Below, piece after piece: positions 10,701-55,399 of a stretch of 64,000 nucleotides of DNA. The notes beneath the pieces were generated by a model that saw only the letters and a program-made list of their open reading frames with translations, had not been told where the DNA came from and did not search any database. Within the stretch, counting starts at the first letter, position 1, and each line of letters starts with the position of its first letter. The translations under genes were made by a program, and so were the position numbers. Source of the DNA: Candidatus Parcubacteria bacterium (GTDB lineage: Bacteria; Patescibacteriota; Patescibacteriia; Patescibacteriales; UBA12075); NCBI GenBank assembly GCA_023132155.1, contig JAGLYP010000026.1, forward strand, positions 1,741-65,740, given 5' to 3'.

Positions 10701-13700
10701 CAAGTGAAATCAGCATTATAACTAACGCGGTTGTTTCTACACCCGGAGCAATGTTTTATATAAAAAATGATCGCGTTTTATATTATCGCGTTTGGACGGG
10801 ATCCGCTTGGAACGCGGAGCAATCCGGACCGACTTTGGGAAGCGCGGCCGGTGATAATATCAGCCATATTCGGGCTGAGCGCTCGGACGATGGCGCCAGA
10901 ATTGCCATTTTAGCCAAAACATGGGACGGAACAAATCAAGAATGGTGGGGAACGGTTTATAGGGTTGCCGCTGATGATTTTGTAAATTCCGGCATTCTCG
11001 GATCAGCTTATGCAAGCGCTGATAACAACCAATTAATTACCGGATGCATCGGAGCGTTATCAAGTGGCGAGTTTGTTGTAATCAGAAACAATAACGGCAG
11101 TGCCGGCACTTTGGTTTTTTCATGGGATGCCGGCGACGGTTGGACAAGCGAGGGCGCGGGTCCGGGATCAACAGTCGGCGAAGTTGATATAATGAACGGT
11201 TGCCGGTTGGCGCGTCGGACAAGTACGGATAATTATTTATTGATTACTTTTGACGACACTATTCACGGAGGCGGTAATTACGGCGATGTGGGAACAAGTT
11301 ATTATTACGGCGGTTCCTCTTATAATAATAGCAGCTGGACAGTGTGGTTTGAACATTCCAGCTTGGAAGAGGATATTGATAATTATGTCGGAGAAGCGTT
11401 TTTTGATCCAAGTGATAATACGCGCGGGGCAATCAATTACTCAAACAGCAATAGTTCGTTTGACGCGAAAGTTAAAAAATTTATAGTAAGTCCGTCTTCT
11501 CCTTATATCAGTTATGGAGCGGAAGCCACTTCGCCCGCAACTTGGTCGGGGGATTTTGTTCACGGCGAATTCGGAACAGATCCGAACGGTGTCGGAACGG
11601 CTTGGTTTGCGGGTGATGATATTAACGGAGAATTAAATATTTATAAAATTGATATCACAAATAGCGCTCCTTCTTGGACGGCTAGCGCAAACGGAGATAA
11701 TATATCCGGAACAGGCCTTTATTCATATACGAGTGATTCGCAAAAGCCTTACGCCATCCAATTTTATAAAGACGGATACGGAACAGTCGCGTGGAATGAA
11801 GCAATAAGCGCCACTCCCAAGTATAGGATAATAACCGCCTCAACAAATACGATTGATGCCGCTGATACGGCGGTTTCAGGAGCAGAGGCTAATATTTATA
11901 CTCGCGCGCGTTTTTATAAAGATCCGAATGAAAATGAATTTGTGGCAATTTATCAAAATGATGATGTTGATTATAGCGCGATTTTTTGGGATGGAACAAA
12001 TGATAGTTTTTACAGTTCAGGCAATCAGGCATGGACTGAGCTTGTTACCGCTTCAGGCGCCGTTGACGCGGACTATGAGGCAGCTACATTTGCTTTTAGC
12101 GCCGGCAATGCTACTCCGAATACACCGACAAATTTAATTCAATATAAAAGCGATGCCAGCACAACCATTGCAAACGGAGCTTGGACAGATGAAAATACCG
12201 TTAAATTGGTTGCTTCATCCAAAGACGCGGATACCAGCGAAGTATTGTCTGTTTACGCGCAATTAATCGCGGATAATGAAACATTTTCATCTACCACAAC
12301 CCATCCGATTAATGCCTGCGCCGTTGGCGTGTCTTTTACCGCTTGCAACAGTAAAACTTGGCTGGTTGCTACCAGTTCCGGAGACTATAGCGCGAACGCC
12401 CTGGTTGCCACGGCAACTATTACTTTAATTTCTGATTCAGATGTCGGCTATAAATGGCAAGTTATGGCTTGCGATGATGATTCAGCTTGTTCCGGCTGGG
12501 CAAAATATAATTTAACTCAGCCGAATTTTTATGTTGATACAATTGACCCGACAGTTCCCGGAGAGCTTGAGCCTATTTCCAAAACCAGTACCAGCATAGA
12601 TTTAGATTTTGGAGCGACAACAACCGAAGATAATTTTTCTGAATATAAGATATTTTATTCAGAAACCATGCCGATTACAGAATTAAGTTCTGAACATGAT
12701 GATTCTGATCTGGATAATATTCTTTTTAACGGAACCAGCGGGGTGTCTGTTACTTCTCTGACACCCAATACTTTATATTATTTTAATATTTGGGCATATG
12801 ATTTTGCCGGAAATGTTGCCAGCTCAACCGTTGTGTCAACCACAACCAATACCACATATAATTTAGTCCAGACTTCTTATTTATTGGAAAATGATGACGC
12901 GCTAGATGTTAATTCCAATACTTCGGAAACAACTTTTGATAATCCTTTAAATAATATTAATATTGGAGAGCGGATGAATGTGAGGATTCAGCTTGAAAAC
13001 AACGGAGGTGATACCGCTTCTACTAAAGTTTATAGCCTGCAATATGAAAATCAGACTGACAACCCCGGCACATGGATTAATGTTGGCGTGGCTACTGAAA
13101 TTAGTTACTCTTTGGGTTTGTCCGGCGATAATGGACACGTGGTATCGTCAGCAAAAGCTGCCGCAAATTCAAATACTTTCGCGTTTGGCGCTTGGCATGA
13201 AGACACATATCAGACAGGATCTTTTTCTTTAATAAATAATTATTATACGGAATTTGTGTTTGCGATTGAAACCGGCAATGCCTTAACAAGCAAAACTTAT
13301 CGTTTGCGTTTGTATAATGAAACCGATAATAAAGTGCTTGATGGCTACAATAGTACTTCAACTTTTTCCACAGTTGCGACTGAAACTAAAAAATATTCCA
13401 AAGAAGAATTGGATTCTTTGCTCACAACAACCGCTGACTTGAAATATTATTTTGACGGCGAAGGATATGATGATGTTTCAACGGATGATAATACGAATTA
13501 TGATGAAAATGGAACAACAACCGCAAATTACGCTGTAATAAATTTTGCCACTAAGCATACCAATAATACAGATGCCATAACCGTAACTTGGAACGGACAA
13601 TCAAGCGCATCTCCCGTTTACGCAACCGTGTATTTGCAAGTTTATCAATATGGTTCAATTAATTCATGGATAACAATGGCAAGCAACAGCACAGCCGCAA

Positions 13701-17765: not shown

Positions 17766-17873
17766 GAGAATTAAGAATCAAGAATAAAGAATAAAGGGGA
17801 ATAAAAATTGCTTCGCAATTTAGTAGAAATAAATCTCCAATGCTTGATTCATAATTCTTTATTCTTTATTCTT
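17766..17873. repeat. heptamer array (AAGAATN x4) forming a 17-bp perfect inverted repeat with a 60-nt loop
   Basis: Left arm aagaataaagaataaag at 17780-17796 is the exact reverse complement of ctttattctttattctt at 17857-17873. The loop contains a second hairpin, AAATTGC-TTC-GCAATTT, at 17805-17821. Confidence 0.8.
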
Positions 17874-29608: not shown

Positions 29609-30937
29609 ATGGATATAAAAAAAATAAAAGTCTCGCAAAGCCCCGGTGTTTATTATTTTTTAAATAAACAAGGAAAAATAATTTATATCGGGAAAGCGGC
29701 GAATTTGAAAAGCCGCGTGTTTTCGTATTGGCGCAAAAGCGCCGGTTTGAGCGGCGCCAAACAGGAAATGATGAGGCAAATCGCGGATATTAAGTGTGTT
29801 GAAACCGATTCGGAAATAGAAGCTTTGCTTTTAGAGTCAAATTTAATAAAAAAGCATCAGCCGAAATATAATATTGATTTAAGAGATGATAAACGCTTTG
29901 TTTATATCAAAATTTCAACAGAAGATGAAATCCCCGGGGTTTTTATTACCAGAAAAATCGAAAAGCAAGGAAAGTATTTTGGTCCTTTTATATCTGTGTT
30001 TGCCGTAAAAGATGCGTTAAAAGCAATTAGAAAAATATGGCCGTATTGTACAGAGCGAAAAATTAAAAATAAGCCTTGTTTTTACGCGCAAATCGGGCGT
30101 TGTGTCGGGGTTTGCGGCGGTAATTTTGATTTAAACGAATACAAAGAAAAAATTATTAAGCCGATTGTGATGTTTTTGGGTGGGAAGAAAAATGTGATAA
30201 TTAAGAATTATGAATTAAGAATTAATAATTTAGAGAAGAAATTAATAAATAATAAAAATGATGAGAAAATTTTGGAAGAGATTACGCGATTAAAGCGGAA
30301 ATTATTGAATTTAAAGTATATATTGGCGTGCGCGAATGTTATTGGAATTTCTGAAAAGTACGCGGCTGATGTGTTTGAGTTGGCTAAAGTTTTGGGTTTG
30401 CCTAAAGTGCCTGAGCGGATAGAAGGGTATGATATATCCAATATTTTCGGGCGTGAAGCGGTTGGGTCAATGGTGGTTTTTTCCAATGGCGAACCTGATA
30501 AAAGAGGTTATCGCAAGTTTAAAATAAAAGTTGGCAGTGAAATGGGGGATACGGGGATGTTGAAGGAGGTATTGGAAAGGAGATTGAAGTATGCAGTAAA
30601 TAATGGCTTGCGCTCCGAAGCTTCAGCGAAGGAGTGGCCTAGTCCCGATTTAATTATTATTGACGGCGGAAAGGGACAGCTTAATTTGGCGGTGAGATTA
30701 TTAAAAAAAGAAAAATTGGGTATTCCTGTGATAGCCGTGTCAAAAGGCAAGGGGTTAAGGGGCGCGAACGCGCTTGATAAGATATTTTTTCCGGGAGAAA
30801 AAAAGCCGCTTGAATTACCATTGGCTTCACCTGCTTTGCATATTATAAAACGTGTTCGCGATGAAGCGCATCGTTTCGCGATTAAATATCATCGGGAGTT
30901 GAGGAGGAAAAGTTTTGTGAAAAGTGCAAGAAACTAA
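29609..30937 (+). CDS. uvrC: excinuclease ABC subunit C, short form lacking the C-terminal (HhH)2 domain
   Basis: GIY-YIG 'GVYYFLNKQGKIIYIGKAANLKSRVFSYW' and 'IKKHQPKYN'. The endonuclease region carries 'IEGYDISN', 'PDLIIIDGGKGQL' and 'RVRDEAHRFAIKYHR'. The protein ends 13 aa later at 442 aa, versus ~600 typical. Confidence 0.85.
   Translation: MDIKKIKVSQSPGVYYFLNKQGKIIYIGKAANLKSRVFSYWRKSAGLSGAKQEMMRQIADIKCVETDSEIEALLLESNLIKKHQPKYNIDLRDDKRFVYIKISTEDEIPGVFITRKIEKQGKYFGPFISVFAVKDALKAIRKIWPYCTERKIKNKPCFYAQIGRCVGVCGGNFDLNEYKEKIIKPIVMFLGGKKNVIIKNYELRINNLEKKLINNKNDEKILEEITRLKRKLLNLKYILACANVIGISEKYAADVFELAKVLGLPKVPERIEGYDISNIFGREAVGSMVVFSNGEPDKRGYRKFKIKVGSEMGDTGMLKEVLERRLKYAVNNGLRSEASAKEWPSPDLIIIDGGKGQLNLAVRLLKKEKLGIPVIAVSKGKGLRGANALDKIFFPGEKKPLELPLASPALHIIKRVRDEAHRFAIKYHRELRRKSFVKSARN
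30197..30231 (+). repeat. in-frame NNAATTA heptamer array inside uvrC
   Basis: ATAATTA AGAATTA TGAATTA AGAATTA ATAATTT encodes 'IIKNYELRINNL'. Confidence 0.8.
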
Positions 30938-31024
30938 GTACATACGATTTTTTTGTTATCCGTAGGAACAGGGCAGTACCCTGTTCCTACGGATAACAAA
31001 AAAATCGTAGGTACTTAGTTTCTT
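30928..31024. terminator. 97-nt palindrome (30-bp perfect core stem); bidirectional terminator between convergent uvrC and uvrB
   Basis: acgatttttttgttatccgtaggaacaggg (30944-30973) is the exact reverse complement of 30979-31008. The outer arms aagaaactaagtac (30928-30941) and gtacttagtttctt (31011-31024) include the last two codons and the stop of both genes. Confidence 0.85.
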
Positions 31025-32820
31025 TTAATTGTCCGCGGCGTGATGCCGTGTTTTTTATTATAAGCAATTTGCATTTTTCTGCGCCTTTTAGTTTCGTTTA
31101 CAGCATAAGTAATTGCTGGAGTGATTTTATCGCCGTACATAATAACTCTGCCTTCAACGTGGCGGGAGGTGCGTCCCATTGTTTGCATAAGCGAGGTTTC
31201 ATTTCTTAAAAAGCCGGACATGTCAGCGTCAAGAATCGCGACCAACGATACTTCCGGCAAATCCAGACCTTCGCGCAGAAGATTGATTCCCACCAGCACA
31301 TCGTATTTGCCAAGTCTTAAGTCCCTGAGAATATCAACACGCTCCAAGGTTTTTATTTCCGAGTGCAGATATTGGACTTTGATTTTTTCTTCTGCCAAGT
31401 ATTCTGCCAGTTCTTCAGCCATTCTTTTAGTTAAAGTTGTTACCAATACCCGCTGTTTTTTAATAACTGTTTTTTTTATCTCTTTTAGCAAATCCGGAAT
31501 CTGCCCGGTGCTTGGACGAACCATAACTTCCGGATCCAAAAGGCCTGTCGGTCGGATAATTTGTTCAACGACTTGTTTTGATTTGCGTATTTCATAGTCT
31601 TTTGGCGTGGCGGAAACATAAATTACTTGATTGATTTTAGAATTAAATTCTTTAAAATTTAATGGGCGATTGTCTTTGGCGCTTGGGAGCCGGAAGCCGA
31701 AATCAATTAAAGTTTGTTTGCGGGATTGGTCGCCCGCGTACATGCCGCGAATTTGCGGAATACTAACGTGCGACTCATCAATAAATAATAAAAAATCTTT
31801 TGGAAAAAAATTCATAAGAGTGGATGGCGGTTTTCCCGGATTGCGGTTGCTTAAATGCCGCGAGTAATTTTCTATGCCATTACAATAGCCGATTTGTTCA
31901 ATCATTTCCAAGTCAAAATTTGTTTTTCGCTCCAAACGGTACGCTTCTACTTGTTTATTTTGTTTGCTTAATTCATTTAAACGTTTTTTAAGCTCCAGCC
32001 GGATATTTGTTAAAGCTTTTTCCATTCGGTCTTTAGGAGTCATAAAATGTTTAGCAGGCAGAATATTTATACTGTCCAGTTTTATCGCCTGCTTGTTTCT
32101 TAAGTCTTTTGCCCAAACCGGTTCAGTAGCGCCGGGTTTAACATTGAAAATATAAATATTTTCAATTTTATCGCCATACATTTCAATTCTTACAACCGAT
32201 TCGCCGGTAGATAAATGAATATCAATCATGCCGCCATTAACCCTGAATTGTCCTCTGTAAAACGCGGTATCGTTTCTTTCATATTGAATGCCGACCATCT
32301 GCCGCAAGAGTTCGTTTCTTTTTATTTTTTGCTTAACGCTGAAAATCCGCCCTAAATTTTCATAATCTTTTTTTTCTCCCAAACCGTAAATGCAGGAAAC
32401 GCTAGCCACTATAATTACATCCTTACGATTAATTAATGATTGCGTTGAGGCATGCCGCAGGCGGTCTATTTCTTCGTTAATTGTCGCTTCTTTTTCAATA
32501 TAAGTATCAGTTTGCGGAATATAGGCTTCCGGCTGGTAATAATCGTAATAAGACACAAAATAATGCACTGCCGCTTGAGGAAAAAATTGCTTAAATTCTC
32601 CGTATAGCTGCGCCGCCAAGGTTTTATTATGGGACATAATTAATGTCGGTTTTTGCGTTTTTTCTATGATATTAGCCATAGTAAAAGTTTTGCCGCTTCC
32701 GGTAACGCCAAGCAATGTTTGGTTTTTTTTGCCGGCCTTTAAGCCGGCTGTTAATTTTTTAATCGCAATCGGCTGATCACCGGCCGGCTTGTATTTTGAA
32801 TGAAGTTTAAATAAGCTCAT
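31015..32820 (-). CDS. uvrB: excinuclease ABC subunit B, short form lacking the C-terminal UVR domain
   Basis: '[15 protein letters not shown]', Walker A '[10 protein letters not shown]', and helicase motifs 'DESH' and 'QTMGRTSRH'. It ends at '...[15 protein letters not shown]' (601 aa), just after helicase domain 3. Confidence 0.9.
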
Positions 32821-34192: not shown

Positions 34193-34798
34193 ATGAAATA
34201 TATAGATTTGATAAATAAAGTGCCTGATCCGATATTTAGCATTCAAGATTTAGCTTTAATGGGAATAAAAATATATCCTTATCAACTTTCCCTTTGGTCG
34301 CAAAAAAAATATATTCAGAAACTTAAAAACGGGCTTTACGCAATTAGTGAACGGGCAAAAAGTTTAAAAATGGAAACAATTGCCTTTAATTTGTATCAGC
34401 CAAGTTATATTAGCTTGGAATGGGCGCTTTTTAAATACGGGTTAATTCCCGAAATCGTGTTTAATCCGACTTCGGTTACCGCTAAAACTACCAGAGTTTT
34501 TAAAAATAATTTTGGCTTGTTTTCTTATCGCCACTTAAAAAAAGAATTGTTTTTCGGTTATAGAAAAATTAATGAAAACGGACAGATTTATTTAATTGCC
34601 GAACCGGAAAAAGCGCTTTTGGATTATTTATATTTAAATTCGCCAAAAATTAAAACGCAAGAAGATATTAAAGAATTAAGATTCAATGAAATTGAAATAA
34701 AAAAACTTAATAAGACAAAATTACGAAAATATACAGAAATGGCAAATAATAAAAATTTGCAAAAATTAATTTATAACATAACAAATGTTAACTTTTGA
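34193..34798 (+). CDS. abiEi: AbiEi-like antitoxin / transcriptional regulator (type IV TA)
   Basis: 201 aa located immediately upstream of, and overlapping by 14 nt, an AbiEii-type nucleotidyltransferase. The N-terminus resembles the AbiEi_4-type wHTH ('FSIQDLALMGIKIYPYQLSLWSQKKYIQKLKNGLYAI'). Confidence 0.65.
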   Translation: MKYIDLINKVPDPIFSIQDLALMGIKIYPYQLSLWSQKKYIQKLKNGLYAISERAKSLKMETIAFNLYQPSYISLEWALFKYGLIPEIVFNPTSVTAKTTRVFKNNFGLFSYRHLKKELFFGYRKINENGQIYLIAEPEKALLDYLYLNSPKIKTQEDIKELRFNEIEIKKLNKTKLRKYTEMANNKNLQKLIYNITNVNF

Positions 34799-35561
34799 AC
34801 AAATAAAAAACGAATATGCGCGAGAAACAATTCAGCGAAATCCCAAGGCGATTTTAGTTGAATATCTTCAGTATGAACTTTTAGATTCGCTATATAAACA
34901 AAAAAATAGCGAGCGCTTGAGTTTTATGGGCGGTACTGCAATTAGAATTGTGTATGGCAGCCAAAGATTTTCCGAAGATTTGGATTTTGATAATTTTGGT
35001 TTGAGTTATCGGGATTTTGAACAGATTTTAGAAAAAGTAATGGCGGATATGAAAAATAAGGGTTTTGAGATTGAGTTTAGATTATTAAAAAAAGGCGCTT
35101 ATCATTGCTATATAAAATTTCCAAAACTGCTTTTTGAAAATAATTTATCTGACCATCAAGATGAAAAGATTTTGGTGCGGATAGATACGGTTTTAAAAAA
35201 ACAATTCAATAAACCAAAGAATTTTATTTTAAACGGATTTGGAGTTTATAGAAAAATTTTGGTTAATTCAGAGGAAGTGATTTTATCTCAAAAAATAATA
35301 GCAATCATAGAAAGAAAACGAAGCAAAGGGCGCGATTATTATGATGTTTCCTACTTACTTGGAAAAGTTAATCCAGATTTTGGTTATCTTGAAACTGTTT
35401 TGGGAATTAAAGAAAAAGGCGCGATTAAAAATAAATTGATTGAAGTGGCAGACAAAAATAATTTAAACGATTTAGCCAAAGATGTCAGTCCGTTTTTAAT
35501 TGACAAAAACGGTTCGGATAGGGTTATCGGTTTTAAAGAATATATTGAACAGAGGATGTAA
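34785..35561 (+). CDS. abiEii: AbiEii/AbiGii-family nucleotidyltransferase toxin (DUF1814)
   Basis: 'FMGGTAIRIVYGSQRFSEDLDFD' is the nucleotidyltransferase G..A/DLD motif typical of AbiEii. '...RSKGRDYYDV' is a C-terminal conserved motif. Confidence 0.75.
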   Translation: MLTFEQIKNEYARETIQRNPKAILVEYLQYELLDSLYKQKNSERLSFMGGTAIRIVYGSQRFSEDLDFDNFGLSYRDFEQILEKVMADMKNKGFEIEFRLLKKGAYHCYIKFPKLLFENNLSDHQDEKILVRIDTVLKKQFNKPKNFILNGFGVYRKILVNSEEVILSQKIIAIIERKRSKGRDYYDVSYLLGKVNPDFGYLETVLGIKEKGAIKNKLIEVADKNNLNDLAKDVSPFLIDKNGSDRVIGFKEYIEQRM

Positions 35562-35589: not shown

Positions 35590-38583
35590 ATGAAAAAACA
35601 AGAAAATAATGAGAATAAAATAAAAAAGAACCCTTTTGCGATAATGGAAGAGGATGTTTTAAAATTTTGGGAAAAGAATAAAATTTTTGAAAAATCAATT
35701 GAAAAAGAGGCGCCAAAAGGCGATTATGTTTTTTATGACGGGCCGCCGTTTATTACCGGATTGCCGCATTACGCGACGCTTCTTCCAAGTATTGCCAAAG
35801 ATATGGTGCCGCGCTATTGGACTATGAAAGGTTATAGAGTAGAGCGTGTTTGGGGCTGGGATTGCCATGGCTTGCCTGCGGAAAATAAGGTGGAAACAGA
35901 ATTGGGTTTGAAAAATAAAAAAGATATTGAAGAGCTGGGGGTTGATAAATTCGTAAACGCTTGCCGTGACTATGTTACCACCGGTTCAGAGCAATGGGAA
36001 TGGTATATTAATCGTATCGGCCGCTGGGTGGATATGAAAAACGCCTACAAAACCATGGATTTAAAATTTATGGAAAGCGTAATTTGGGCATTTAAAAAAT
36101 TGTATGACAAAGGCTTGATTTATGAGGGTTATCGTTCTTCACTGCATTGCCCTCGCTGCGCGACTCCGCTTTCAAAGTTTGAAATTACAATGGACGCGGG
36201 TTCTTATAAGGATGTTATTGATGATTCGGCTGTTGTTAAGTTTGAGATAAAAAATGTTAATAAAATATTGGCAGACTTGGAGCTTAGTTCCGAAGCTTCG
36301 GAGCTAAGCTCCGTGAATAGCAATGTTTATATTTTGGCTTGGACTACTACGCCTTGGACTTTGCCCGGAAATTTAGCTTTGGCGATTAATAAAAGTATTA
36401 AGTATCAAGTATTAAGTATTAACGATAATAATTATATTATTGCAAAAGACAGGGTTGAGGAAGTTTTTAAGGATAGAGGATATAAGATAATAAAAGAGTT
36501 TAAGGGTAAAGAATTGGTTGGGCTAGAATATGAGCCGTTGTTTGATTTGGGAAATAAAGAAATTTCTGAAAATAAGAATACATATAAAATATATCACGGA
36601 GATTTTGTTTCCACTGAGGAGGGGACGGGGGTCGTGCATATCGCGCCGAATTTCGGTGAAGATGATTTTGAATTTGGCAAAGCATATAAATTGCCAATGG
36701 TTGATTTAATGGATGAGATGGGAAATTATACTGAATTGGCGGGCGAGGAATGGAATGGATTGTATTTTAAAAAAGTTAATACAAAAGTTTTGGAAATATT
36801 GGGTGATAAATTATTTTTAAAGGAGCCCCACGAGCACTCATACCCCTTTTGTTACCGCTGTAATAGCCGTTTGATTTATAAAACTCAAAAGGCCTGGTAT
36901 TTGCGAATTTCAGAAATTAGAAATAAAATGCTTGAAAGCAATAAAGATATTAACTGGGTGCCGGAATATTTTAAAGAGGGCAGATTCAAATATAATCTGG
37001 AAAACGCGCCGGATTGGTGCTTGTCTCGTTCTCGGTATTGGGGTTCGCCGATTCCTGTTTGGCGCTGTGAGGAATGTGATGAAATTAAAGTTGCTGGTTC
37101 AGTTGAAGAAATTAAGAAATTAAGCAATGAAGAAGTTAAAGACTTACACAGGCCGGCAATTGATAAAGTTGAGTTTAAATGTGAAAAGTGCCAGGGAAAA
37201 ATGAAGCGAGTTGTTGAGGTTTTGGATTGCTGGTTTGAGTCTGGATCAATGCCTTTTGCGCAATTTCATTATCCTTTTGAACGAAAAAAAGAATGGAAAA
37301 ATATTTTTCCGGCAGATTTTATTATTGAATATACGGGCCAATTAAGAGGCTGGTTTTATTATTTGCATGTTTTGTCTAATGCCTTATTTGATTCTTTGGC
37401 ATTTAAGAATGTAATTGTATCCGGCGTACTCGCGGGAACAGATGGGCGCAAAATGAGCAAGTCATACGGCAATTATCCTGATTCAAAAAATACTTTAGAT
37501 AAATATGGGGCTGACGCTCTTAGATTGTATTTTATGTCATGTTCAATTATGGCCGGGGATGACACAACTTTAAGCGAAAAAGATATTCAGGATGCTTTGC
37601 GAAAAAATGTTATGCTTTTGTGGAATGTCACCAAATTTTATGATATGTTTTGCCATGATAAGGAAACCATAAAAGAAGATTTGGAATTTAAAAATATTTT
37701 AGATAGATGGATTGTTTTTAGGTTAGATCAGGTAGTTAAAGAAGTTACAGATAATATGGAAAAATATAGTTTACAAGGAGCGGCGCGTCCGATTACAGGG
37801 TTTATTGACGATTTGTCAACCTGGTATCTGAGGCGTTCTCGAGATCGTTTTAAAGGTGATGATAAAAATGATAAAATTCAGGCTTTAAAAACAACAAAAT
37901 ATGTTTTATTAACATTTTCCAAAGTGATCGCGCCGATTATGCCGTTTATTGCGGAACAAGTTTGGCAGAAAGTTAGCGGGAATGATTTTAAGAATGAGAA
38001 TAAATCAGTACATTTGGAGGGATGGCCTAAACAGGAATTACGAATTACACCCGTCAAGCGAATACAAGCGAATTACGAATTACGAATTTTGGAAGAAATG
38101 GAAATAGTTAGGAAAATTGTGGAATTGGCGCTTGCGAAAAGGGATGAGGCGGGAATAAGGGTGAGACAGCCGTTGAGCGAATTACGAATTACGAATTGTG
38201 AATTACGAGATGAATATATGGATTTAATTAAGAATGAATTGAATGTTAAAGATATAAAAACAGAAAAAGGCGATGGGGAATTAAATGTGAAATTAGATAT
38301 AAAATTAACACCGGAATTAAAACAGGAGGGTATGAAAAGAGAGATAGTCAGAACGGTTAACAGCATGCGCAAGAATATTGGCTTAACAATAAACGATAGG
38401 ATAGTTTTGTTCTGGCAAAGCGAAAATCAAGATATAATTCAAGCAATAAAAAAATATTCTAATGATATTCGCGGCGATGTTTTGGCTGATGAAATAAAAA
38501 ATGAAAAAAATGATGAAGTTGATATTCAGAAGGAAATAAATTTAGATTGTGGAATATTATTTTTAGGCATAAAAAATAAATAA
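35590..38583 (+). CDS. ileS: isoleucyl-tRNA synthetase
   Basis: 'FYDGPPFITGLPHYATLL' (HIGH region), 'WTTTPWTLPGN' (editing domain), 'KMSKS', and Zn-ribbon-like 'CYRC...CEEC' and 'CEKC'; 997 aa. Confidence 0.95.
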   Translation: MKKQENNENKIKKNPFAIMEEDVLKFWEKNKIFEKSIEKEAPKGDYVFYDGPPFITGLPHYATLLPSIAKDMVPRYWTMKGYRVERVWGWDCHGLPAENKVETELGLKNKKDIEELGVDKFVNACRDYVTTGSEQWEWYINRIGRWVDMKNAYKTMDLKFMESVIWAFKKLYDKGLIYEGYRSSLHCPRCATPLSKFEITMDAGSYKDVIDDSAVVKFEIKNVNKILADLELSSEASELSSVNSNVYILAWTTTPWTLPGNLALAINKSIKYQVLSINDNNYIIAKDRVEEVFKDRGYKIIKEFKGKELVGLEYEPLFDLGNKEISENKNTYKIYHGDFVSTEEGTGVVHIAPNFGEDDFEFGKAYKLPMVDLMDEMGNYTELAGEEWNGLYFKKVNTKVLEILGDKLFLKEPHEHSYPFCYRCNSRLIYKTQKAWYLRISEIRNKMLESNKDINWVPEYFKEGRFKYNLENAPDWCLSRSRYWGSPIPVWRCEECDEIKVAGSVEEIKKLSNEEVKDLHRPAIDKVEFKCEKCQGKMKRVVEVLDCWFESGSMPFAQFHYPFERKKEWKNIFPADFIIEYTGQLRGWFYYLHVLSNALFDSLAFKNVIVSGVLAGTDGRKMSKSYGNYPDSKNTLDKYGADALRLYFMSCSIMAGDDTTLSEKDIQDALRKNVMLLWNVTKFYDMFCHDKETIKEDLEFKNILDRWIVFRLDQVVKEVTDNMEKYSLQGAARPITGFIDDLSTWYLRRSRDRFKGDDKNDKIQALKTTKYVLLTFSKVIAPIMPFIAEQVWQKVSGNDFKNENKSVHLEGWPKQELRITPVKRIQANYELRILEEMEIVRKIVELALAKRDEAGIRVRQPLSELRITNCELRDEYMDLIKNELNVKDIKTEKGDGELNVKLDIKLTPELKQEGMKREIVRTVNSMRKNIGLTINDRIVLFWQSENQDIIQAIKKYSNDIRGDVLADEIKNEKNDEVDIQKEINLDCGILFLGIKNK
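36279..36312. repeat. 34-nt near-perfect palindrome in frame inside ileS
   Basis: ggagcttagttccgaag|cttcggagctaagctcc has one mismatch pair and encodes 'LELSSEASELSS' in the variable linker before WTTTPWTL. Confidence 0.8.
38034..38089 (+). repeat. in-frame heptamer (CGAATTA) array 1 inside ileS
   Basis: GGAATTA CGAATTA [3 degenerate units in phase] CGAATTA CGAATTA CGAATTT encodes 'ELRITPVKRIQANYELRIL'. Confidence 0.8.
38178..38205 (+). repeat. in-frame heptamer (CGAATTA) array 2 inside ileS
   Basis: CGAATTA CGAATTA CGAATTG TGAATTA encodes 'ELRITNCELR'. Confidence 0.8.
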
Positions 38584-39839: not shown

Positions 39840-39887
39840 TATTCGCATGTCCCGCATTTGTAGTTGCGGGTTCGCGAAGCGAATAAC
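39840..39887. repeat. REP-like hairpin element, copy 2
   Basis: TATTCGCATGTCCCGCA-TTTGTAGT-TGCGGGTTCGCGAAGCGAATAAC. The arms are identical to 21004-21069. It lies 10 nt upstream of ATG 39897. Confidence 0.8.
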
Positions 39888-39896
39888 TTAAAAACT

Positions 39897-41075
39897 ATGG
39901 CTTTTTCAAACAAGAAAAAAAATGAAGATAAAATAGATATTATTAAATTGGTAAATGATATTTTTTATCAAGGCATAGAAGAGGGGGCAAGCGATATCCA
40001 TATTCAGCCGTTTAAAGACGGGATTATAGTGCGTTATCGTATTGATGGAATTTTAAGAACGGTATTTGAAGGTGATAAAGGTTTAAGTGATTTTATGTTT
40101 TCGCGCATTAAAATTTTAGCGGATATGGAAACAACAGGATTGCCGCGCCCGCAAGAAGGAAATATTAAATTTAAATTTAATGAAAATCATGTTGATTTGC
40201 GCGTATCTATTTTTCCAACCAGCCAGGGAGAAGCGGTGGTGGTGCGTATTTTAGAAAGTAAAAAGTTTTTTAAAGAATATAATGATTTGGGGTTTAACGC
40301 TGAGCAAACAGCAGCTTTGGAAAAAATTACAAAAAAGCCATACGGATTAATTTTGGTTACAGGCCCTAATGGCAGCGGAAAATCAACAACGCTTTTTACC
40401 GTATTAAATAAGCTTAACATTCCTGAAAAAAGCTTGGTTACTTTAGAGGATCCTGTTGAAAGAAAAATAGATATGGTTAGGCAAACCAATATTAATCCGG
40501 CAATCGGATTAACTTTTGCCAAAGGATTAAAATATTTGTTAAGGCAGGATCCCGATGTTTTGATGGTGGGAGAGATTCGCGATAAAGAAACAGCGAATAT
40601 AGCCGTGCAGGCCGCCGTAACCGGACATTTGGTTTTGGCGACAATTCACACAAATAACGCGGCCGGCGCTATTGTTCGTTTAATTAATATGGGAATTGAA
40701 CCGTTTTTATTATCTTCAGCCTTAAAATTTGTTTCAGCGCAAAGATTGGCAAGAACAAATTGTCCGCATTGTAAAAAAGAATATCGCCCTTCTAAAGAAC
40801 TAATTGATATTCTTGGCGCTCCGCGAGGAATTAAATTTTATCATTCAGAAGGCTGTGATGAGTGCGGCGGCAAAGGCATGAAGGGCAGGCAAGGGATTCA
40901 TGAGGTATTGTTAATTTCCAAATCAGTTCAGGAATTGATTTTACAGCGGCCATCCGATGATCATATTAATAATTTGGCCGTAAAAGAAGGAATGGCAACA
41001 TTAAGGCAGGCCGCGCTGCAAAATGTTTATAGTGGAAATATCAGCATTGAAGAAGCGATCAGGCTCACGGAATAA
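39897..41075 (+). CDS. pilB: type II/IV secretion ATPase (GspE/PilB family), short form
   Basis: Preferred start is ATG 39897; the TTG at 39864 lies inside the hairpin element. Walker A 'GPNGSGKSTT', Asp box/Walker B 'LRQDPDVLMVGEIRD', His box 'TGHLVLATIHTN' and tetracysteine 'CPHCK...CDECGGKG'. Confidence 0.8.
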   Translation: MAFSNKKKNEDKIDIIKLVNDIFYQGIEEGASDIHIQPFKDGIIVRYRIDGILRTVFEGDKGLSDFMFSRIKILADMETTGLPRPQEGNIKFKFNENHVDLRVSIFPTSQGEAVVVRILESKKFFKEYNDLGFNAEQTAALEKITKKPYGLILVTGPNGSGKSTTLFTVLNKLNIPEKSLVTLEDPVERKIDMVRQTNINPAIGLTFAKGLKYLLRQDPDVLMVGEIRDKETANIAVQAAVTGHLVLATIHTNNAAGAIVRLINMGIEPFLLSSALKFVSAQRLARTNCPHCKKEYRPSKELIDILGAPRGIKFYHSEGCDECGGKGMKGRQGIHEVLLISKSVQELILQRPSDDHINNLAVKEGMATLRQAALQNVYSGNISIEEAIRLTE

Positions 41076-41113
41076 TGAATAATTAAAAATTAAGAATTAA
41101 TAATTAACAATTA
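41070..41113 (+). repeat. intergenic heptamer array (GAATAAT x2, then NNAATTA x5)
   Basis: AATTA recurs at exact 7-nt spacing from 41081 to 41113, starting at the pilB stop. Confidence 0.8.
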
Positions 41114-41152
41114 AAATCACATTCTCGTTCTGCTTTTAAATTTTATTTTTAA

Positions 41153-42717: not shown

Positions 42718-42755
42718 TTATCAATTTTCAATTAGGAATTAAAAATTAAAAATTA
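42714..42755 (+). repeat. intergenic heptamer array (NNAATTA x6)
   Basis: AATT(A/T) recurs at 42716, 42723, 42730, 42737, 42744 and 42751. The array begins within the htpX stop codon. Confidence 0.8.
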
Positions 42756-44334: not shown

Positions 44335-44362
44335 TAATTTTTAACTCTTAATTCTTAATTTA
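44335..44362 (-). repeat. heptamer array in inverted orientation (TAATTNN x4)
   Basis: TAA(T/C)T recurs at 44335, 44342, 44349 and 44356, which is the reverse complement of the NNAATTA units. It ends 8 nt before the secA ATG. Confidence 0.7.
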
Positions 44363-47325: not shown

Positions 47326-49404
47326 ATGGCTAGCTTAGCGGAAAAAATATTTAAACCATCTGCCAGAGGCAAAATCTGGCGCGTTTTTTTAGTTATTATT
47401 TTATTGGTTTTTATCGGCGGTCTTGTAGATGTTGGTAATTATTATAATAAAGGCACAGATTATATTGCTTGGAAAACCAATGGAACGATTAAGTTGCCAA
47501 AGACAAAGGAAATTCCTTTTCGTTTAGGGCTTGATCTACAAGGCGGCAGCCATCTTGTGTATGAAGCTGATATGTCGGAGATTCCAGATAGCGATAGATC
47601 CGGAGCGTTGGAGGGTGTAAGAGACGTAATTGAAAGAAGAGTTAATGTTTTCGGCGTAAGCGAACCATTAATACAAACCAGTCTTTCTGGCGGTAACTAC
47701 CGTATCATTGTGGAATTAGCCGGTATCAAGGACGTGGGTGAGGCAATCAAAATGATTGGAGAAACTCCTTTGCTTGAATTTAAAGAAGAGACCCAGGAAA
47801 TTAGAGAGCTAACCGAAGAAGAGCAAAAAACCATGGAAAAATATAATACAGAGGCGGATAAAAAAGCGGAAGATGTGTTTGGCAAGTTATTGTCAGGAGG
47901 AGATTTTGACGCTTTGGCCAAAGAATATAGCGACGATCAAAATACAAAAGAAACCGGCGGGGATTTGGGCTGGATAACGGAAAAAGAAGCGCCGCAAATT
48001 ATTGCCAAAATCAAGGATTTTGAAATTGGGCAAATAAGCGAGGATTTGGAAAAGGAAGAATTGGGTTATGATATTTTAAAATTGGAAGATAAGCGCTTGC
48101 GCGTTAATCCTTTTGATGAAAGCGAAGTGGAAAAAGAAGTTAAAGCTTCGCATCTATTGCTTTGCCACAATGAAGTTGAAAATTGCGAAAACGGTTTAAG
48201 CAAGGACGAGGCTTACGCGAAAATTAAAGAAATAAAAGCGCGAGCCACTCCTGAGAATTTTGCCGGTTTAATAAAAGAGCACTCAACCGAACCCGGAGCC
48301 GACACTCGCGCCGGAGATTTGGGCTGGTTTGCCAAGGGAGCGATGGTAAAGCCTTTTGAGGACACTGTTTTTGACCAAGAGACAGGAACAATTTCTTATG
48401 TTATTGAAACGCAGTTTGGTTATCATTTGATTTATAAACAAGCCGAAAGGGATATTTATGAGTATAAAATAAGGCGTTTGTTTATCCGTATTTTAACTGA
48501 ACGAGATATAATCGGCGATCAAAAAGAATGGAAATTAACGGAATTAACAGGAAAAAATTTAGAGCGCGCGGCGGTGCAATTTGACCCAAATGACAATAGT
48601 CCGATTGTCAGTTTGGAATTTGACAGCGAAGGCGCGGATTTGTTCGCGGACATTACCGAAAGGAATGTCGGCAAGCCCGTAGCGATATTTTTAGACGGCG
48701 AGCCGATAAGCACTCCGAATGTTAATGAAAAAATTACCGGCGGCAAAGCGGTTATATCCGGTAAATTTAATATCCAAGAAGCGAAATTATTAGCCCAAAG
48801 GCTTAACGCCGGCGCCTTGCCGGTTCCGATTGAACTTGTCGGCCAGCAGACAGTCGGAGCCAGCCTGGGCAAGATTTTTTTGGAATCAAGTTTGAAGGCC
48901 GGATTAATCGGATTAATATTGGTGGCGTTTTTTATGATTTTTTATTATCGTTTGCCTGGGATTTTCGCGGTTATATCATTGGCGATTTACGGTATATTGG
49001 TTTTGGCGATATTTAAGCTTTGGCCGGTAACATTGACCTTGTCAGGCATGGCCGGATTTATTCTTTCAATCGGCATGGCGGTTGACGCGAATGTCTTGAT
49101 TTTTGAGCGCTTAAAAGAAGAGCTTAAGTCGGGCCGACCTTTAATTTTGGCAATTGAAGATTCTTTTTTGCGCGCATGGCCGTCAATTCGCGATGGCAAT
49201 GTTTCCACTTTGGTTACTTGTCTTATTTTGATTTGGTTTTCAACCGGCGTGGTAAAAGGCTTTGCCATTACTTTGGGTCTGGGTATTTTAGTGTCAATGT
49301 TTTCGGCAATAGTGATTACCAGAAATTTATTGTGGCTTTTTAAGCCTGAGTGGCTGGAAAAAAGGATGTGGCTGATCAGTGGCGGGGTTAAAATTAAGAA
49401 TTAA
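47326..49404 (+). CDS. secD: protein translocase subunit SecD carrying an inserted tandem parvulin (PpiC-type PPIase)-like region
   Basis: SecD hallmarks are 'GLDLQGGSHLVYEAD', 'VIERRVNVFGVSEPLIQ' and 'LNAGALPVPIELVGQQTVGASLG', plus 6 C-terminal TM helices. Residues ~155-400 contain 'ASHLLL...GDLGWFAKGAMVKPFEDTVF....GTISYVIETQFGYHLIYK' and a second degenerate copy 'GGDLGWITEKE..'. Confidence 0.85.
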   Translation: MASLAEKIFKPSARGKIWRVFLVIILLVFIGGLVDVGNYYNKGTDYIAWKTNGTIKLPKTKEIPFRLGLDLQGGSHLVYEADMSEIPDSDRSGALEGVRDVIERRVNVFGVSEPLIQTSLSGGNYRIIVELAGIKDVGEAIKMIGETPLLEFKEETQEIRELTEEEQKTMEKYNTEADKKAEDVFGKLLSGGDFDALAKEYSDDQNTKETGGDLGWITEKEAPQIIAKIKDFEIGQISEDLEKEELGYDILKLEDKRLRVNPFDESEVEKEVKASHLLLCHNEVENCENGLSKDEAYAKIKEIKARATPENFAGLIKEHSTEPGADTRAGDLGWFAKGAMVKPFEDTVFDQETGTISYVIETQFGYHLIYKQAERDIYEYKIRRLFIRILTERDIIGDQKEWKLTELTGKNLERAAVQFDPNDNSPIVSLEFDSEGADLFADITERNVGKPVAIFLDGEPISTPNVNEKITGGKAVISGKFNIQEAKLLAQRLNAGALPVPIELVGQQTVGASLGKIFLESSLKAGLIGLILVAFFMIFYYRLPGIFAVISLAIYGILVLAIFKLWPVTLTLSGMAGFILSIGMAVDANVLIFERLKEELKSGRPLILAIEDSFLRAWPSIRDGNVSTLVTCLILIWFSTGVVKGFAITLGLGILVSMFSAIVITRNLLWLFKPEWLEKRMWLISGGVKIKN

Positions 49405-49424
49405 GAATTAAGAATTAATAATTC
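49390..49424 (+). repeat. heptamer array (AGAATTA x3 plus variants) spanning the secD stop
   Basis: AAAATTA AGAATTA AGAATTA AGAATTA ATAATTC. The last four secD codons and its stop ('KIKN*') lie inside the array. Confidence 0.8.
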
Positions 49425-54281: not shown

Positions 54282-54330
54282 AAGTAGAAAGTTATAAAGT
54301 GTAATTATTAATTGCATCGCACCATTTTTG

Positions 54331-54358
54331 TTATGTGTTGCGTGTTATGTGTTGTGTG
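54331..54358 (+). repeat. 7/14-nt periodic TTATGTG-TTGYGTG array overlapping the mreB start region
   Basis: TTATGTG TTGCGTG TTATGTG TTGTGTG. The 7-nt periodicity also extends upstream through the proS 3' end (GAAAGTT TAAAAGT AGAAAGT ...). Confidence 0.7.
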
Positions 54359-55399
54359 TTTAATAAATTATTAGGAAAATTTAGCAAAGATCTCGGCATA
54401 GATTTAGGCACGAAAAATACTCTTGTCTATACCGCTGATAAAGGCATAGTTATTAATGAGCCGTCGGTTGTGGCCGTGAATACGCGCACTGATGAAATTT
54501 TGGCTGTGGGGGACGAAGCCAAAAAAATGGTTGGGAAAACTCCAGGCCATATTCAGGCGATAAGGCCTTTGGTTGACGGTGTAATTTCCGATTTTGAAGT
54601 TACTGAAAAAATGCTTAAATATTTTATTGATAAGGTTCACGCGGAAAGTTTTACGTTAATTCCGCGTCCGCGAGTTGTTATCGGCATCCCTTTGGATATT
54701 ACCGAGGTGGAAAAAAAGGCGGTTAAAGACGCTGCAAAATCAGCAGGGGCCAGACAGGTGTATTTAATTGAGGAGTCAATGGCGGCCGCTATCGGCGCGC
54801 GTTTGCCGGTAGCCGATCCGACCGCGACTATGATAGTTGATATTGGCGGCGGAACTACGGAAATTTCGGTAATTTCTTTGGGCGGGGTTGTTTCATGGAA
54901 ATCGCTTAGACAGGCGGGAAATGAATTGGATAATAATATAATTCAATATTTTAGGGATGAGTTTAGCATATTAATCGGCGAGCAAGTAGCGGAAAATGTT
55001 AAATTGCAAATCGGTTCGGCCGCTGTTTTAAAAGAGCCGATGGAGATGGAAGCGCGCGGAAGAGATCTTATTAACGGCTTGCCTCGCGCCGTTGTTATTA
55101 ATGACAGCCAAATTAGAGAAGCTATTAGCAGAACGGTTAATCAAGTCATTGATAACATAAAAATTACCATGGAAACCACTCCGCCCGAATTGGTTTCTGA
55201 TATATATGAGCATGGCATAACTTTGGCCGGCGGCGGCGCGCTTTTAAGGGGCTTGGATAAAGAAATCGCGCAAGCTACAAAGATTCCCGTGCGAGTAGCG
55301 GATGATGCCTTGACTTGCGTTGTTAGGGGCGCGGGGATTTTATTAGAGGATCCTGAATTGCTGGAAAAAGTTTTGACTCCAAATAGCGATGAATTTTAA
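54347..55399 (+). CDS. mreB: rod shape-determining protein MreB
   Basis: 'FSKDLGIDLGTKNTLVY', 'VVAVN', 'RPLVDGVISDFE', 'MIVDIGGGTTEISVISLGG' and 'GITLAGGGALLRGLD'. The start is ambiguous: GTG 54335, ATG 54347, or GTG 54356. The last gives 'VFNKLLGKFSKDLGIDLG', which parallels E. coli 'MLKKFRGMFSNDLSIDLG'. Confidence 0.92.
   Translation: MCCVFNKLLGKFSKDLGIDLGTKNTLVYTADKGIVINEPSVVAVNTRTDEILAVGDEAKKMVGKTPGHIQAIRPLVDGVISDFEVTEKMLKYFIDKVHAESFTLIPRPRVVIGIPLDITEVEKKAVKDAAKSAGARQVYLIEESMAAAIGARLPVADPTATMIVDIGGGTTEISVISLGGVVSWKSLRQAGNELDNNIIQYFRDEFSILIGEQVAENVKLQIGSAAVLKEPMEMEARGRDLINGLPRAVVINDSQIREAISRTVNQVIDNIKITMETTPPELVSDIYEHGITLAGGGALLRGLDKEIAQATKIPVRVADDALTCVVRGAGILLEDPELLEKVLTPNSDEF

Follow-up and report, generated by a model that had tools for sequence, protein, structure and literature searches.

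Heptanucleotide repeat arrays in the isoleucyl-tRNA synthetase gene of a Candidatus Parcubacteria bacterium and in its genomic surroundings

Results

Two heptanucleotide arrays lie in frame in an isoleucyl-tRNA synthetase gene

We analyzed a 64,000-nucleotide stretch of the genome of a Candidatus Parcubacteria bacterium (assembly GCA_023132155.1, contig JAGLYP010000026.1, positions 1,741 to 65,740; hereafter, the window) and, within it, a single gene for isoleucyl-tRNA synthetase (IleRS; ileS) that carries tandem arrays of a 7-nt unit in its coding sequence. Pfam assigned to the encoded protein the domains tRNA-synt_1 (residues 23–653), Anticodon_1 (705–863) and DUF5915 (868–977), and the protein was 100% identical to the NCBI entry 'isoleucine--tRNA ligase [Candidatus Parcubacteria bacterium]', which is encoded on a 769-kb contig. 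Its best solved relative was 8c8v_A (E 4e-37), with T. thermophilus 1ile at 2e-18. With a class I core, an Anticodon_1 domain, a C-terminal DUF5915 and an IleRS as the nearest solved relative, the protein is a type 2 IleRS. Units of GAATTAC, which is CGAATTA in another phase, occur in the gene at 38035–38048, 38070–38088 and 38179–38206, and we refer to the first two as parts of array 1 and to the third as array 2; both arrays lie at approximately 80–87% of the gene length. The features of the gene are as follows.

35590–38583, + strand: isoleucyl-tRNA synthetase (type 2), 997 amino acids (aa) (open reading frame, Pfam, protein identity, structure match)
36393–36422, + strand: third IleRS array, (AAGTATT)4.3, translated KSIKYQVLSIN, in the editing domain (Tandem Repeats Finder [TRF], lag scan)
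38035–38048, + strand: left part of array 1, GAATTAC x2, translated E816-L-R-I-T820 (sequence, repeat search)
38049–38069, + strand: 21-nt non-heptamer spacer, translated PVKRIQA (sequence, TRF period-10 row, repeat family)
38070–38088, + strand: right part of array 1, GAATTAC GAATTAC GAATT (2.7 units), translated (A)NYELRI (TRF, repeat search)
38067–38088, + strand: exact 22-nt direct repeat AGCGAATTACGAATTACGAATT, copy A (repeat search)
38089–38175, + strand: conserved core between the arrays, L834–L862, predicted long helix ending in VRQPL (alignment, model)
38176–38197, + strand: exact 22-nt direct repeat AGCGAATTACGAATTACGAATT, copy B, 109 nt downstream of copy A (repeat search)
38179–38206, + strand: array 2, GAATTAC GAATTAC GAATTGT GAATTAC, translated E864-LRITNCELR873 (TRF, repeat search)

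TRF detected two period-7 CGAATTA arrays here, at 38069–38088 (2.9 copies, 100% matches) and 38178–38208 (4.4 copies), and a repeat search placed GAATTACGAATTAC at 38035, 38070 and 38179, with a degenerate copy at 38193. The 14-mer CGAATTACGAATTA, equivalent to two units, occurred six times in the window with at most one mismatch, compared with 0.12 expected occurrences, and none of 100 shuffles reached six. Across both arrays the translation reads WPKQ-ELRIT-PVKRIQA-NYELRI-LEEMEIVRKIVELALAKRDEAGIRVRQPL-S-ELRITNCELR-DEY, and in an alignment of the core R859 and Q860 were invariant and P861 and L862 nearly so. An earlier reading of this DNA, made from the sequence only, had described two arrays flanking a conserved core as direct repeats. 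The four units of array 2 (38179–38206) and the 88-nt core (38090–38177), with its translation ...LEEMEIVRKIVELALAKRDEAGIRVRQPLS, were found as it described them, and the direct repeats were exact over 22 nt (AGCGAATTACGAATTACGAATT at 38067 and 38176). It also holds that a 7-nt unit shifts the reading frame unless gained or lost in threes. Because the two 22-nt copies are spaced by 109 nt (3n+1), they are translated in different frames, and they still yield cyclic permutations of one peptide, since a run of three 7-nt units visits each reading frame.

Array 1 had been read as keeping its 7-nt phase over 56 nt through three degenerate units. The phase was indeed kept, as the spacer between the two parts measures 21 nt, or three times seven, so that both repeat phase and reading frame are preserved. 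The degenerate units did not withstand inspection, as a continued array matched 38048–38068 at just 7 of 21 positions. Instead, the spacer contains ACACCCGTCAAGC (38047–38059), a 10/13 match to the left flank of array 2 (ACAGCCGTTGAGC) that only four of the 63,806 window positions equal in score, and a 10-nt tandem duplication, CAAGCGAATA/CAAGCGAATT (38055–38064/38065–38074). When one copy of the duplication was taken out, 38047–38091 and 38166–38200 agreed at 31 of 35 positions. Array 1 may thus have been partly rebuilt by copying of array 2 and its flank, with the heptamers serving as homology, after which the 10-nt duplication would have restored phase and frame. A repeat search at the arrays revealed direct repeats only; neither terminal inverted repeats nor a hairpin or target-site duplication surrounded them.

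Period-7 arrays recur across the window

The arrays had been presented as a peculiarity of IleRS, a view that the remainder of the window contradicts, since related repeats were found throughout it by both TRF and a lag scan. One refuting condition named in the earlier reading, a lack of related repeats elsewhere, therefore does not apply. TRF returned 12 period-7 arrays for the whole window, compared with 0.2 per dinucleotide-preserving shuffle (at most one among 30 shuffles), an approximately 60-fold excess of period 7 over expectation. Exact fixed-lag self-matches of at least 12 nt were present at lag 7 only, and the lag scan yielded 10 lag-7 arrays, mostly of GAATTAA, GAATTAC or GAATAAA units, compared with 0–3 at lags 5, 6 and 8–12. 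Although 90% of the window is occupied by open reading frames (ORFs) of 100 aa or longer, about half of the arrays were intergenic or located at gene ends. The arrays outside IleRS are listed below.

3835–3855, + strand: array AATTACGAATTACAAATTACA (AATTAC unit) inside a 4731-aa ORF, translated KITNYKLH (TRF, lag scan)
17767–17796, + strand: intergenic array AGAATTA AGAATCA AGAATAA AGAATAA, inverted pair with 17854–17873 (TRF, lag scan)
17854–17873, − strand: intergenic array ATTCTTT x3 (reverse complement AAAGAAT), partner of 17767–17796 (TRF, lag scan)
30199–30230, + strand: UvrC array, AATTAAG AATTATG AATTAAG AATTAAT, translated IIKNYELRINN (lag scan, resampling)
41070–41114, + strand: array GAATAAT.../TAAGAAT... 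across the stop codon of a T2SSE gene (39864–41075) (TRF, lag scan)
42737–42755, + strand: intergenic array AATTAAA x2.7 (lag scan)
44335–44360, − strand: intergenic array TAATTCT x3.7 (reverse complement AGAATTA) (TRF)
49392–49423, + strand: (AATTAAG)3 AATTAAT across the stop codon of a SecD-like gene (47326–49404) (TRF, lag scan)

Single heptamer words were not enriched (CGAATTA, 15 compared with 24 expected; GAATTAA, 52 compared with 40 expected), indicating that the excess is specific to the tandem form. On the same counts we discarded the idea of an uptake signal or recognition word. The unit GAATTAA contains TAA in all three forward frames, so that (GAATTAA)3 has a stop in every frame, and in the reverse strand as well; such arrays therefore halt translation in any frame. 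In coding arrays the in-frame unit was altered, with TAC or TGT in IleRS, TAT in UvrC and CAA for TAA in the AAGTATT array. The family consensus is GAATTAA, with GAATTAC as its stop-free coding variant, and it appears to be spread through this Parcubacteria genome and many Patescibacteria. Arrays 1 and 2 are thus one instance of a feature found over the window and the lineage, and not an IleRS-specific device.

Two observations concern individual arrays. The opposite arrays within 17767–17873 enclose a small hairpin and can pair as a long stem. They may represent terminators or a small element; inverted array pairs of this kind are also found in two other loci, L014 (4718/4791) and L033 (18223/18269). 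At 54329–54360, at the start of the ORF 54335–55399, TRF reported a period-7/14 array (TGTTGTG/TGTTATGTGTTGCG) whose unit is unlike the GAATTAA family.

IleRS arrays occur at the same three sites in related species

We compared 80 IleRS loci (1.4 Mb) taken from among the matches listed, which represent Patescibacteria and a few DPANN archaea, mostly distant; close relatives were added singly. These loci contained 52 lag-7 arrays, compared with 7–19 at other lags. Three sites in IleRS carry arrays: the loop after HLEGWP/WPKQ (site i), the position after VRQPL (site ii) and the editing domain before YILAWTTTPW (site iii). In a 40-homologue alignment, heptamer-type peptides were present at these sites in many divergent species, including QITNYELRI and AIKNYELRI at site i, ELRIMNYELR, ELRIKNYELR, FSIFNFQFSIN and KLKVKSQKLKV at site ii, and FRITNYELRITN and FRIKNYELRIKNL at site iii. 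Among 79 non-redundant IleRS genes, residues 863–867 coincided with eight arrays from eight genes, those of seven related species and the window (Poisson P 4e-10). The eight arrays at site ii have eight distinct units (TCGATTT, AGAAGTT, CGAATTA, AATTATT, GAATTAA, AAGTTAA, AAATTCA and ATTATGA), and all of them encode x-[L/F]-x-[I/V]-x-[N/S/D]-x-x-[L/F]. Three further relatives, L208, L209 and L210 (63–65% aa identity, GC 27–43%), possess nucleotide-level arrays at the same three sites, and the right boundary of the site i array of L208 is identical to the window over 24 nt. GAATTACGAATTTTGGAAGAAATG is identical in L208, whose site i array is orthologous to 38070–38088. These comparisons show the arrays to be old, position-conserved features of Patescibacterial IleRS. 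Many lineages have ordinary non-repeat sequence at site ii, such as AKLTIKGADL, and in L017 and L076 the peptide (ELRIKNCEL/ELKIINYEL) is kept and the periodicity decayed.

The closest relative, L081 (protein P0002, 84% aa identity), has an orthologous array 2 of exactly equal length that differs by point substitutions only, in agreement with the earlier suggestion that the arrays are constrained. Among the three closest relatives, site i (window 38034–38091, L081 12300–12350, L084 3990–4110) was hypervariable, with a 22-residue heptamer-derived linker in the window, a repeat-free linker of 11 residues in P0002 (WTKTGKIDKNIIAEME, 11 residues shorter and without an array) and, in P0003, an unrelated insert approximately 24 residues longer than that of the window. 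The sole difference in array length that we observed was in a non-coding array, that at 41070, whose orthologue in L084 is an interrupted CGAATTA-type array differing in both units and length. Of the 86 loci examined, 82 yielded an intact IleRS frame, and each of the 120 protein homologues among the matches listed covered at least half of the query.

Array periodicity exceeds what peptide and codon usage give

To separate nucleotide periodicity from peptide periodicity, synonymous codons were drawn from each genome's own usage with the peptide held fixed, and lag-7 matches were counted. In 11 of 14 arrays, lag-7 matches exceeded the resampled expectation at P<=0.012 (right half of site i in the window, 1e-4; AAGTATT array, 5e-4; UvrC, 7e-4; site iii of L210, <5e-5; site ii of the window, 0.012). 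For R and T the arrays use CGA and ACG, respectively, as dictated by the GAATTAC unit. Nucleotide periodicity therefore exceeds what peptide and codon usage give.

Orthologous arrays also change their unit in all copies together. At site ii the unit is of the GAATTAC type in the window and likewise, although more decayed, in L081, whereas in L084 (80% aa identity) the array reads AAGTTAA AAGTTAA AAGTAGA AAGTTAA AAGTAGG, so that three of the seven unit positions differ in all units. At unit position 6, the orthologous UvrC arrays have A/T/A/A (window) or C/C/C (L081, units 2–4). Identity to the window was lower in the array than in the flanks, both in L081 (70% vs 77%) and in L084 (52% vs 76%). 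In the distant L058 the array was 85% identical to the window, compared with 45–58% for its flanks. We downgraded this last value as proof of DNA-level conservation and relied on the resampling test instead, because a conserved peptide combined with AT-rich codons can produce such identity.

Arrays are modelled as a loop and as β-strands

The AlphaFold model of the window IleRS, built on a shallow alignment of 30 sequences, was weak overall, with a mean predicted local distance difference test score (pLDDT) of 64; it was confident in the editing domain and beyond residue 830, and we used only residues 830–997 and parts of the editing domain. Residues 795–826 scored below 50 and include ELRITPVKRIQ, that is, the left part of array 1 and the spacer; a helix was predicted at 823–854. 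In array 2, L862–T868 (LSELRIT) was modelled as a β-strand in a block of pLDDT 84–88, followed by the turn NCELR and a helix at 874–884, the strand and turn standing at the start of the C-terminal domain. The AAGTATT array was modelled as strand 271–277, a hairpin strand of the editing domain. In the alignment to the type 2 IleRS 8c8v, site i is a 9-residue insertion and site ii aligns without insertion to QSLSLVVTEEDVE. According to the model, array 1 thus occupies a hypervariable loop, while the strands encoded by array 2 and the AAGTATT array are structural and can vary in sequence within a polar/hydrophobic alternation. The proposal that both arrays map to surface loops is accordingly borne out for array 1, a low-confidence loop and an insertion relative to 8c8v, but not for array 2, which the model places in strand 862–868 and a turn.

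The editing domain also contains a near-perfect 36-nt palindrome, GGAGCTTAGTTCCGAAGCTTCGGAGCTAAGCTCC (36278–36313), which is read in frame as DLELSSEASELSSV. Its predicted RNA hairpin has a free energy of −30.4 kcal/mol (z −5.9), and it is GC-rich within an AT-rich gene. It represents an insertion of 30–36 nt relative to L081 and L084, falls in a loop with pLDDT<50 (229–242) and is located where other species have heptamer arrays; we liken it to in-frame palindromic mini-elements. A search of the window for further copies found none that was convincing.

GAATTAC arrays are widely distributed

The exact 21-mer (GAATTAC)3 was present in at least 120 metagenome contigs with GC contents of 31–67%, many of the matches lying at contig ends. 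Because TAA occurs in the reverse orientation, every array within a long ORF ran forward and read as ELRITNY. The 80 metagenome loci that were kept contained 199 lag-7 arrays, compared with 2–17 at other lags, and about half of these had other units. In-frame (GAATTAC)3-4 arrays were hosted by genes for LeuRS (twice in one gene), ValRS, a MurD-like ligase and TsaD (L119, L127, L155 and L100), as well as by O-antigen ligases and others. The contig with the LeuRS array is Patescibacterial and has a GC content of 56%, so that base composition does not account for the AT-rich unit.

A protein search with (ELRITNY)6 retrieved 128 proteins, those among the matches listed being 31–74 aa long. Named matches came from Cylindrospermopsis, Nostoc, Sphaerospermopsis, Desmonostoc, Anabaena, Tolypothrix PCC 7601, Pseudanabaena, a Tannerella and a WWE3 bacterium. 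The presence of ELRITNY in small ORFs of Nostocales indicates that the unit is shared with cyanobacterial heptamer repeats of the short tandemly repeated repetitive (STRR) type. Four of the small ORFs (P0246, P0252, P0308 and P0344; 53–66 aa, 64–79% identity to (ELRITNY)6) are annotated 'alpha/beta hydrolase' and have no Pfam domain on record; the small ORFs annotated in this way are from Sphaerospermopsis, Tolypothrix and a WWE3 bacterium, and are probably repeat-seeded errors.

Discussion

Relation to known repeats

The arrays consist of head-to-tail 7-nt units (2.9 and 4.4 copies by TRF), are commoner than chance and have period 7 as the dominant period, both in the 64-kb window and in 1.4 Mb of related loci, as expected of long simple sequence repeats (LSSRs) and STRR-like repeats. 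According to the summaries of Mrazek 2007 in PMC4679880 and PMC4692102, the heptanucleotide is the most abundant class of long simple sequence repeats (SSRs) in repeat-rich prokaryotes, and polymerase slippage, with approximately 7 nt interacting with the polymerase, was proposed as the cause. As summarized there, the LSSRs of Mrazek, Guo & Shah 2007 resemble the present arrays in their head-to-tail 7-nt units, dominant period 7, many units per genome and proposed slippage origin; they differ in that multiple-of-three units are likeliest in coding regions, whereas here 7-nt arrays stand in frame in essential genes at deeply conserved positions. Cyanobacterial STRR are also mentioned in PMC4692102. 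In the library searched we found no literature linking heptamer repeats to Patescibacteria, or the candidate phyla radiation (CPR), so that the arrays are a known kind of repeat in a lineage for which no report of such repeats was found.

STRR heptanucleotides were reportedly described in 1990 by Mazel et al. from Calothrix/Tolypothrix PCC 7601 and Nostocales, and the units of the classical STRR1–3 are CCCCAGT, TTGGTCA and CAACAGT. Like them, the present arrays are dispersed tandem heptamers, direct and inverted, often near gene ends, and the (GAATTAC)n peptide ELRITNY occurs in small ORFs of Nostoc, Anabaena, Cylindrospermopsis and Tolypothrix PCC 7601. STRR are, however, described as mainly intergenic, the host here is a Parcubacterium and not a heterocystous cyanobacterium, and the units here (GAATTAC, GAATTAA, AAGTATT and others) are not those of STRR1–3, which sets the arrays apart from STRR in the strict sense. 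In-frame mini-insertions are said to have been described by Ogata in 2000 (Rickettsia palindromic elements, RPE) and by Elhai in 2008 (small dispersed repeats, SDR, of Nostoc). These share with our arrays that short repetitive DNA is tolerated in frame at surface positions of conserved, even essential, proteins; unlike these fixed-sequence, hairpin-forming elements, our arrays are plain direct repeats without inverted arms, and their units vary between arrays. The palindrome at 36278–36313 resembles such elements more.

TAACTGA repeats are common to marine Beggiatoaceae, Cyanobacteria and Bacteroidetes (MacGregor 2015, PMC4679880). As with the present arrays, one heptamer recurs across distant phyla, its forward reading has stops in some frames, and its translatable orientation gives a 7-aa peptide, LSVISYQ, predicted to form antiparallel β-structure (PMC4679880), just as arrays here are modelled as β-strands. 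The TAACTGA repeats differ in lying mostly just 5′ of start codons, where translational control was proposed, and in that few related heptamers form repeats in that genome (PMC4679880), whereas many units coexist here. Regulatory roles have also been speculated for heptamer repeats near Nostoc start codons. With contingency loci the arrays share a non-triplet SSR that shifts the frame upon gain or loss of a unit (PMC3315296; 7-bp HMW1A promoter repeats, PMC8262952), but the gene here is essential, its unit number was constant as far as seen, the position is late and the orthologues are in frame. Coding regions generally suppress SSRs in mid-protein, and switches are enriched near the N-terminus (PMC3315296). 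Tandem repeats of Borgs (PMC9879509) are likewise DNA-level repeats that arise independently of protein need and become translated segments. They are described as creating new intrinsically disordered regions in proteins (PMC9879509), and their units in ORFs are divisible by three; here three 7-nt units make one peptide repeat, and a β-strand was modelled in two arrays.

Origin and maintenance of the arrays

In the reading that we favor, to which we assign a probability of roughly 0.65, the arrays are translated heptanucleotide SSRs of STRR type that are kept repetitive by misalignment and copying and are filtered by selection. Three units, or 21 nt, are translated as ELRITNY in any frame, a peptide in which polar and hydrophobic residues alternate ahead of a turn residue, and frame-keeping arrays can therefore be carried wherever a loop or an edge β-strand/hairpin is acceptable. 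Repetitiveness would be upheld by replication misalignment, either slippage or transient, together with short-tract copying between neighboring arrays, of which the flank of array 2 within array 1 may be a trace. Purifying selection would purge variants that shift the frame, create the consensus TAA or disrupt the strand. No regulatory or switching role in IleRS would be needed, and we found no evidence of phase variation; changes by a single unit would be lethal and purged. Deletion between the arrays, which had been raised from the sequence, would remove 109 nt. Being out of frame and removing an almost invariant, highly conserved helix, it would be a lethal hazard that selection purges, and neither a usable variant nor a mechanism.

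Several observations weigh against this interpretation. Ongoing slippage is deduced and was not seen, since no copy-number polymorphism was observed: other assemblies with this exact IleRS were identical over 7–23 kb, the protein is alone in its 90% cluster, and three assemblies of a relative differed by point changes and one 1-nt indel outside the arrays, with no differences in the arrays. As slippage by a single unit would be lethal in a coding array, length-neutral homogenization would have to proceed by transient misalignment or conversion. Part of the similarity between the window and L058 may be attributable to the conserved peptide and AT-rich codon bias, and periodicity has decayed in L017 and L076. 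Finally, GAATTAC recurs in Nostocales, in a Tannerella and in CPR including the 56% GC Patescibacterium, a recurrence that generic slippage does not obviously predict.

That recurrence in distant phyla leaves room for a sequence-specific process, mobile or conversion-like and possibly horizontal, that would install or overwrite heptamer blocks, the IleRS arrays being repeated captures at permissive sites. We regard such a process as unlikely, although it would fit the occurrence of GAATTAC in unrelated genes (twice in IleRS, in the 4731-aa ORF, in UvrC of L081 and at 15719 of L006), in a high-GC LeuRS gene and in Nostocales, Tannerella and WWE3 proteins, as well as the absence of array 1 from the closest relative, the copy of the array 2 flank that array 1 holds and the many metagenome arrays at contig ends, which is how dispersed multi-copy repeats behave. 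The arrays lack terminal inverted repeats, hairpins and target-site duplications, however; one gene may hold different units (AGAATCA, AAAGTCA and CTCCGAA in L031; GAATTAA and AGACAAC in L210); array 2 is as long as its orthologue in L081; and contigs selected for GAATTAC also hold approximately 100 arrays of other units. An extended version, in which a sequence-preferring process installs and homogenizes GAATTAN arrays, with a unit shared with Nostocales and some Bacteroidetes, and the arrays are recruited as β-strand/hairpin modules at fixed sites of IleRS, LeuRS, ValRS, UvrC, MurD-like and TsaD proteins, seems to us similarly doubtful; were it true, a DNA repeat would overwrite and maintain part of a conserved fold over phylum-scale time. 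It is quite unlikely that the repeats are instead a functional nucleic-acid signal, such as single-strand or duplex protein-binding sites or elements controlling ileS translation or mRNA stability. Cold-shock-type proteins do bind heptamer repeats, roles have been proposed (not shown) for Beggiatoaceae TAACTGA and Nostoc start-codon heptamers, periodicity is retained beyond the peptide requirement, and intergenic arrays lie at gene ends and form inverted pairs. Against this stand the eight units used at site ii among species, the lack of enrichment of single units, the many lineages that are non-repetitive at the IleRS sites and the fact that direct repeats form no RNA structure by themselves.

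If there were no DNA-level phenomenon, a hairpin peptide with a 7-residue period (ELRIxNY-ELR) written in AT-rich preferred codons would merely mimic heptamers. The pattern x-L-x-I-x-N/G-x-x-L is indeed general at site ii even without repeats, L017 and L076 retain the peptide despite decayed periodicity, and resampled sequences already reach 15.6 of 29 lag-7 matches at site ii. We give this explanation little credence, and it is largely refuted by the window-wide enrichment of period 7, the lag scan and the resampling, in which most arrays exceeded expectation; moreover, R and T are written with the codons that the GAATTAC unit dictates, identical units make intergenic arrays, and the two IleRS arrays share 22 identical nt despite their different frames. 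A contingency switch, with IleRS toggled as units are gained or lost, would have the classical architecture of a non-triplet SSR in an ORF (PMC3315296), but is highly improbable in an essential gene that is single-copy in the window, in arrays that lie far from the N-terminus, with frames and homologues intact as described above and with the unit number of array 2 equal in the window and the 84%-identical L081 orthologue. Short repeats can be misassembled, and many (GAATTAC)n matches lie at contig ends; an assembly or sequencing artefact is nevertheless hardly credible, given that the 769-kb scaffold and a separate Logan assembly (run SRR13892600) give the identical sequence, that orthologous arrays are present in several independently assembled relatives and that the reading frame is intact.

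Essential genes normally exclude non-triplet repeats from their middle part (PMC3315296), whereas here such repeats are kept in frame, at the same sites, across IleRS proteins that are only 47–65% identical. One IleRS array appears to encode a structured strand rather than a loop, and the arrays are more repetitive than the peptide requires. If general, these arrays would offer a simple, testable example of protein segments being supplied and maintained by the dynamics of DNA repeats, and would warn annotators of spurious small 'ELRITNY' ORFs and of unexpected inserts in CPR housekeeping proteins. If the pattern holds genome-wide, it may mark heptamer-rich lineages.

Additional features of the window

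The gene directly 5′ of ileS (34785–35561) carries an AbiEii toxin-family domain (PF08843, precomputed Pfam) and is missing from the syntenic region of L081. A single ORF of 4731 aa spans 1760–15955 and contains the GAATTAC-type array at 3835. All non-nested ORFs of at least 100 aa are on the + strand except that of UvrB, and GC skew is positive in every 2-kb bin of the window, which fits a single replichore with strong co-orientation. A very long inverted repeat (30919–31033), with 55-nt arms that are 91% complementary and a 5-nt loop, lies between the genes for UvrC and UvrB, which are convergent; a 51-nt stretch of this repeat matches L082 in both orientations.

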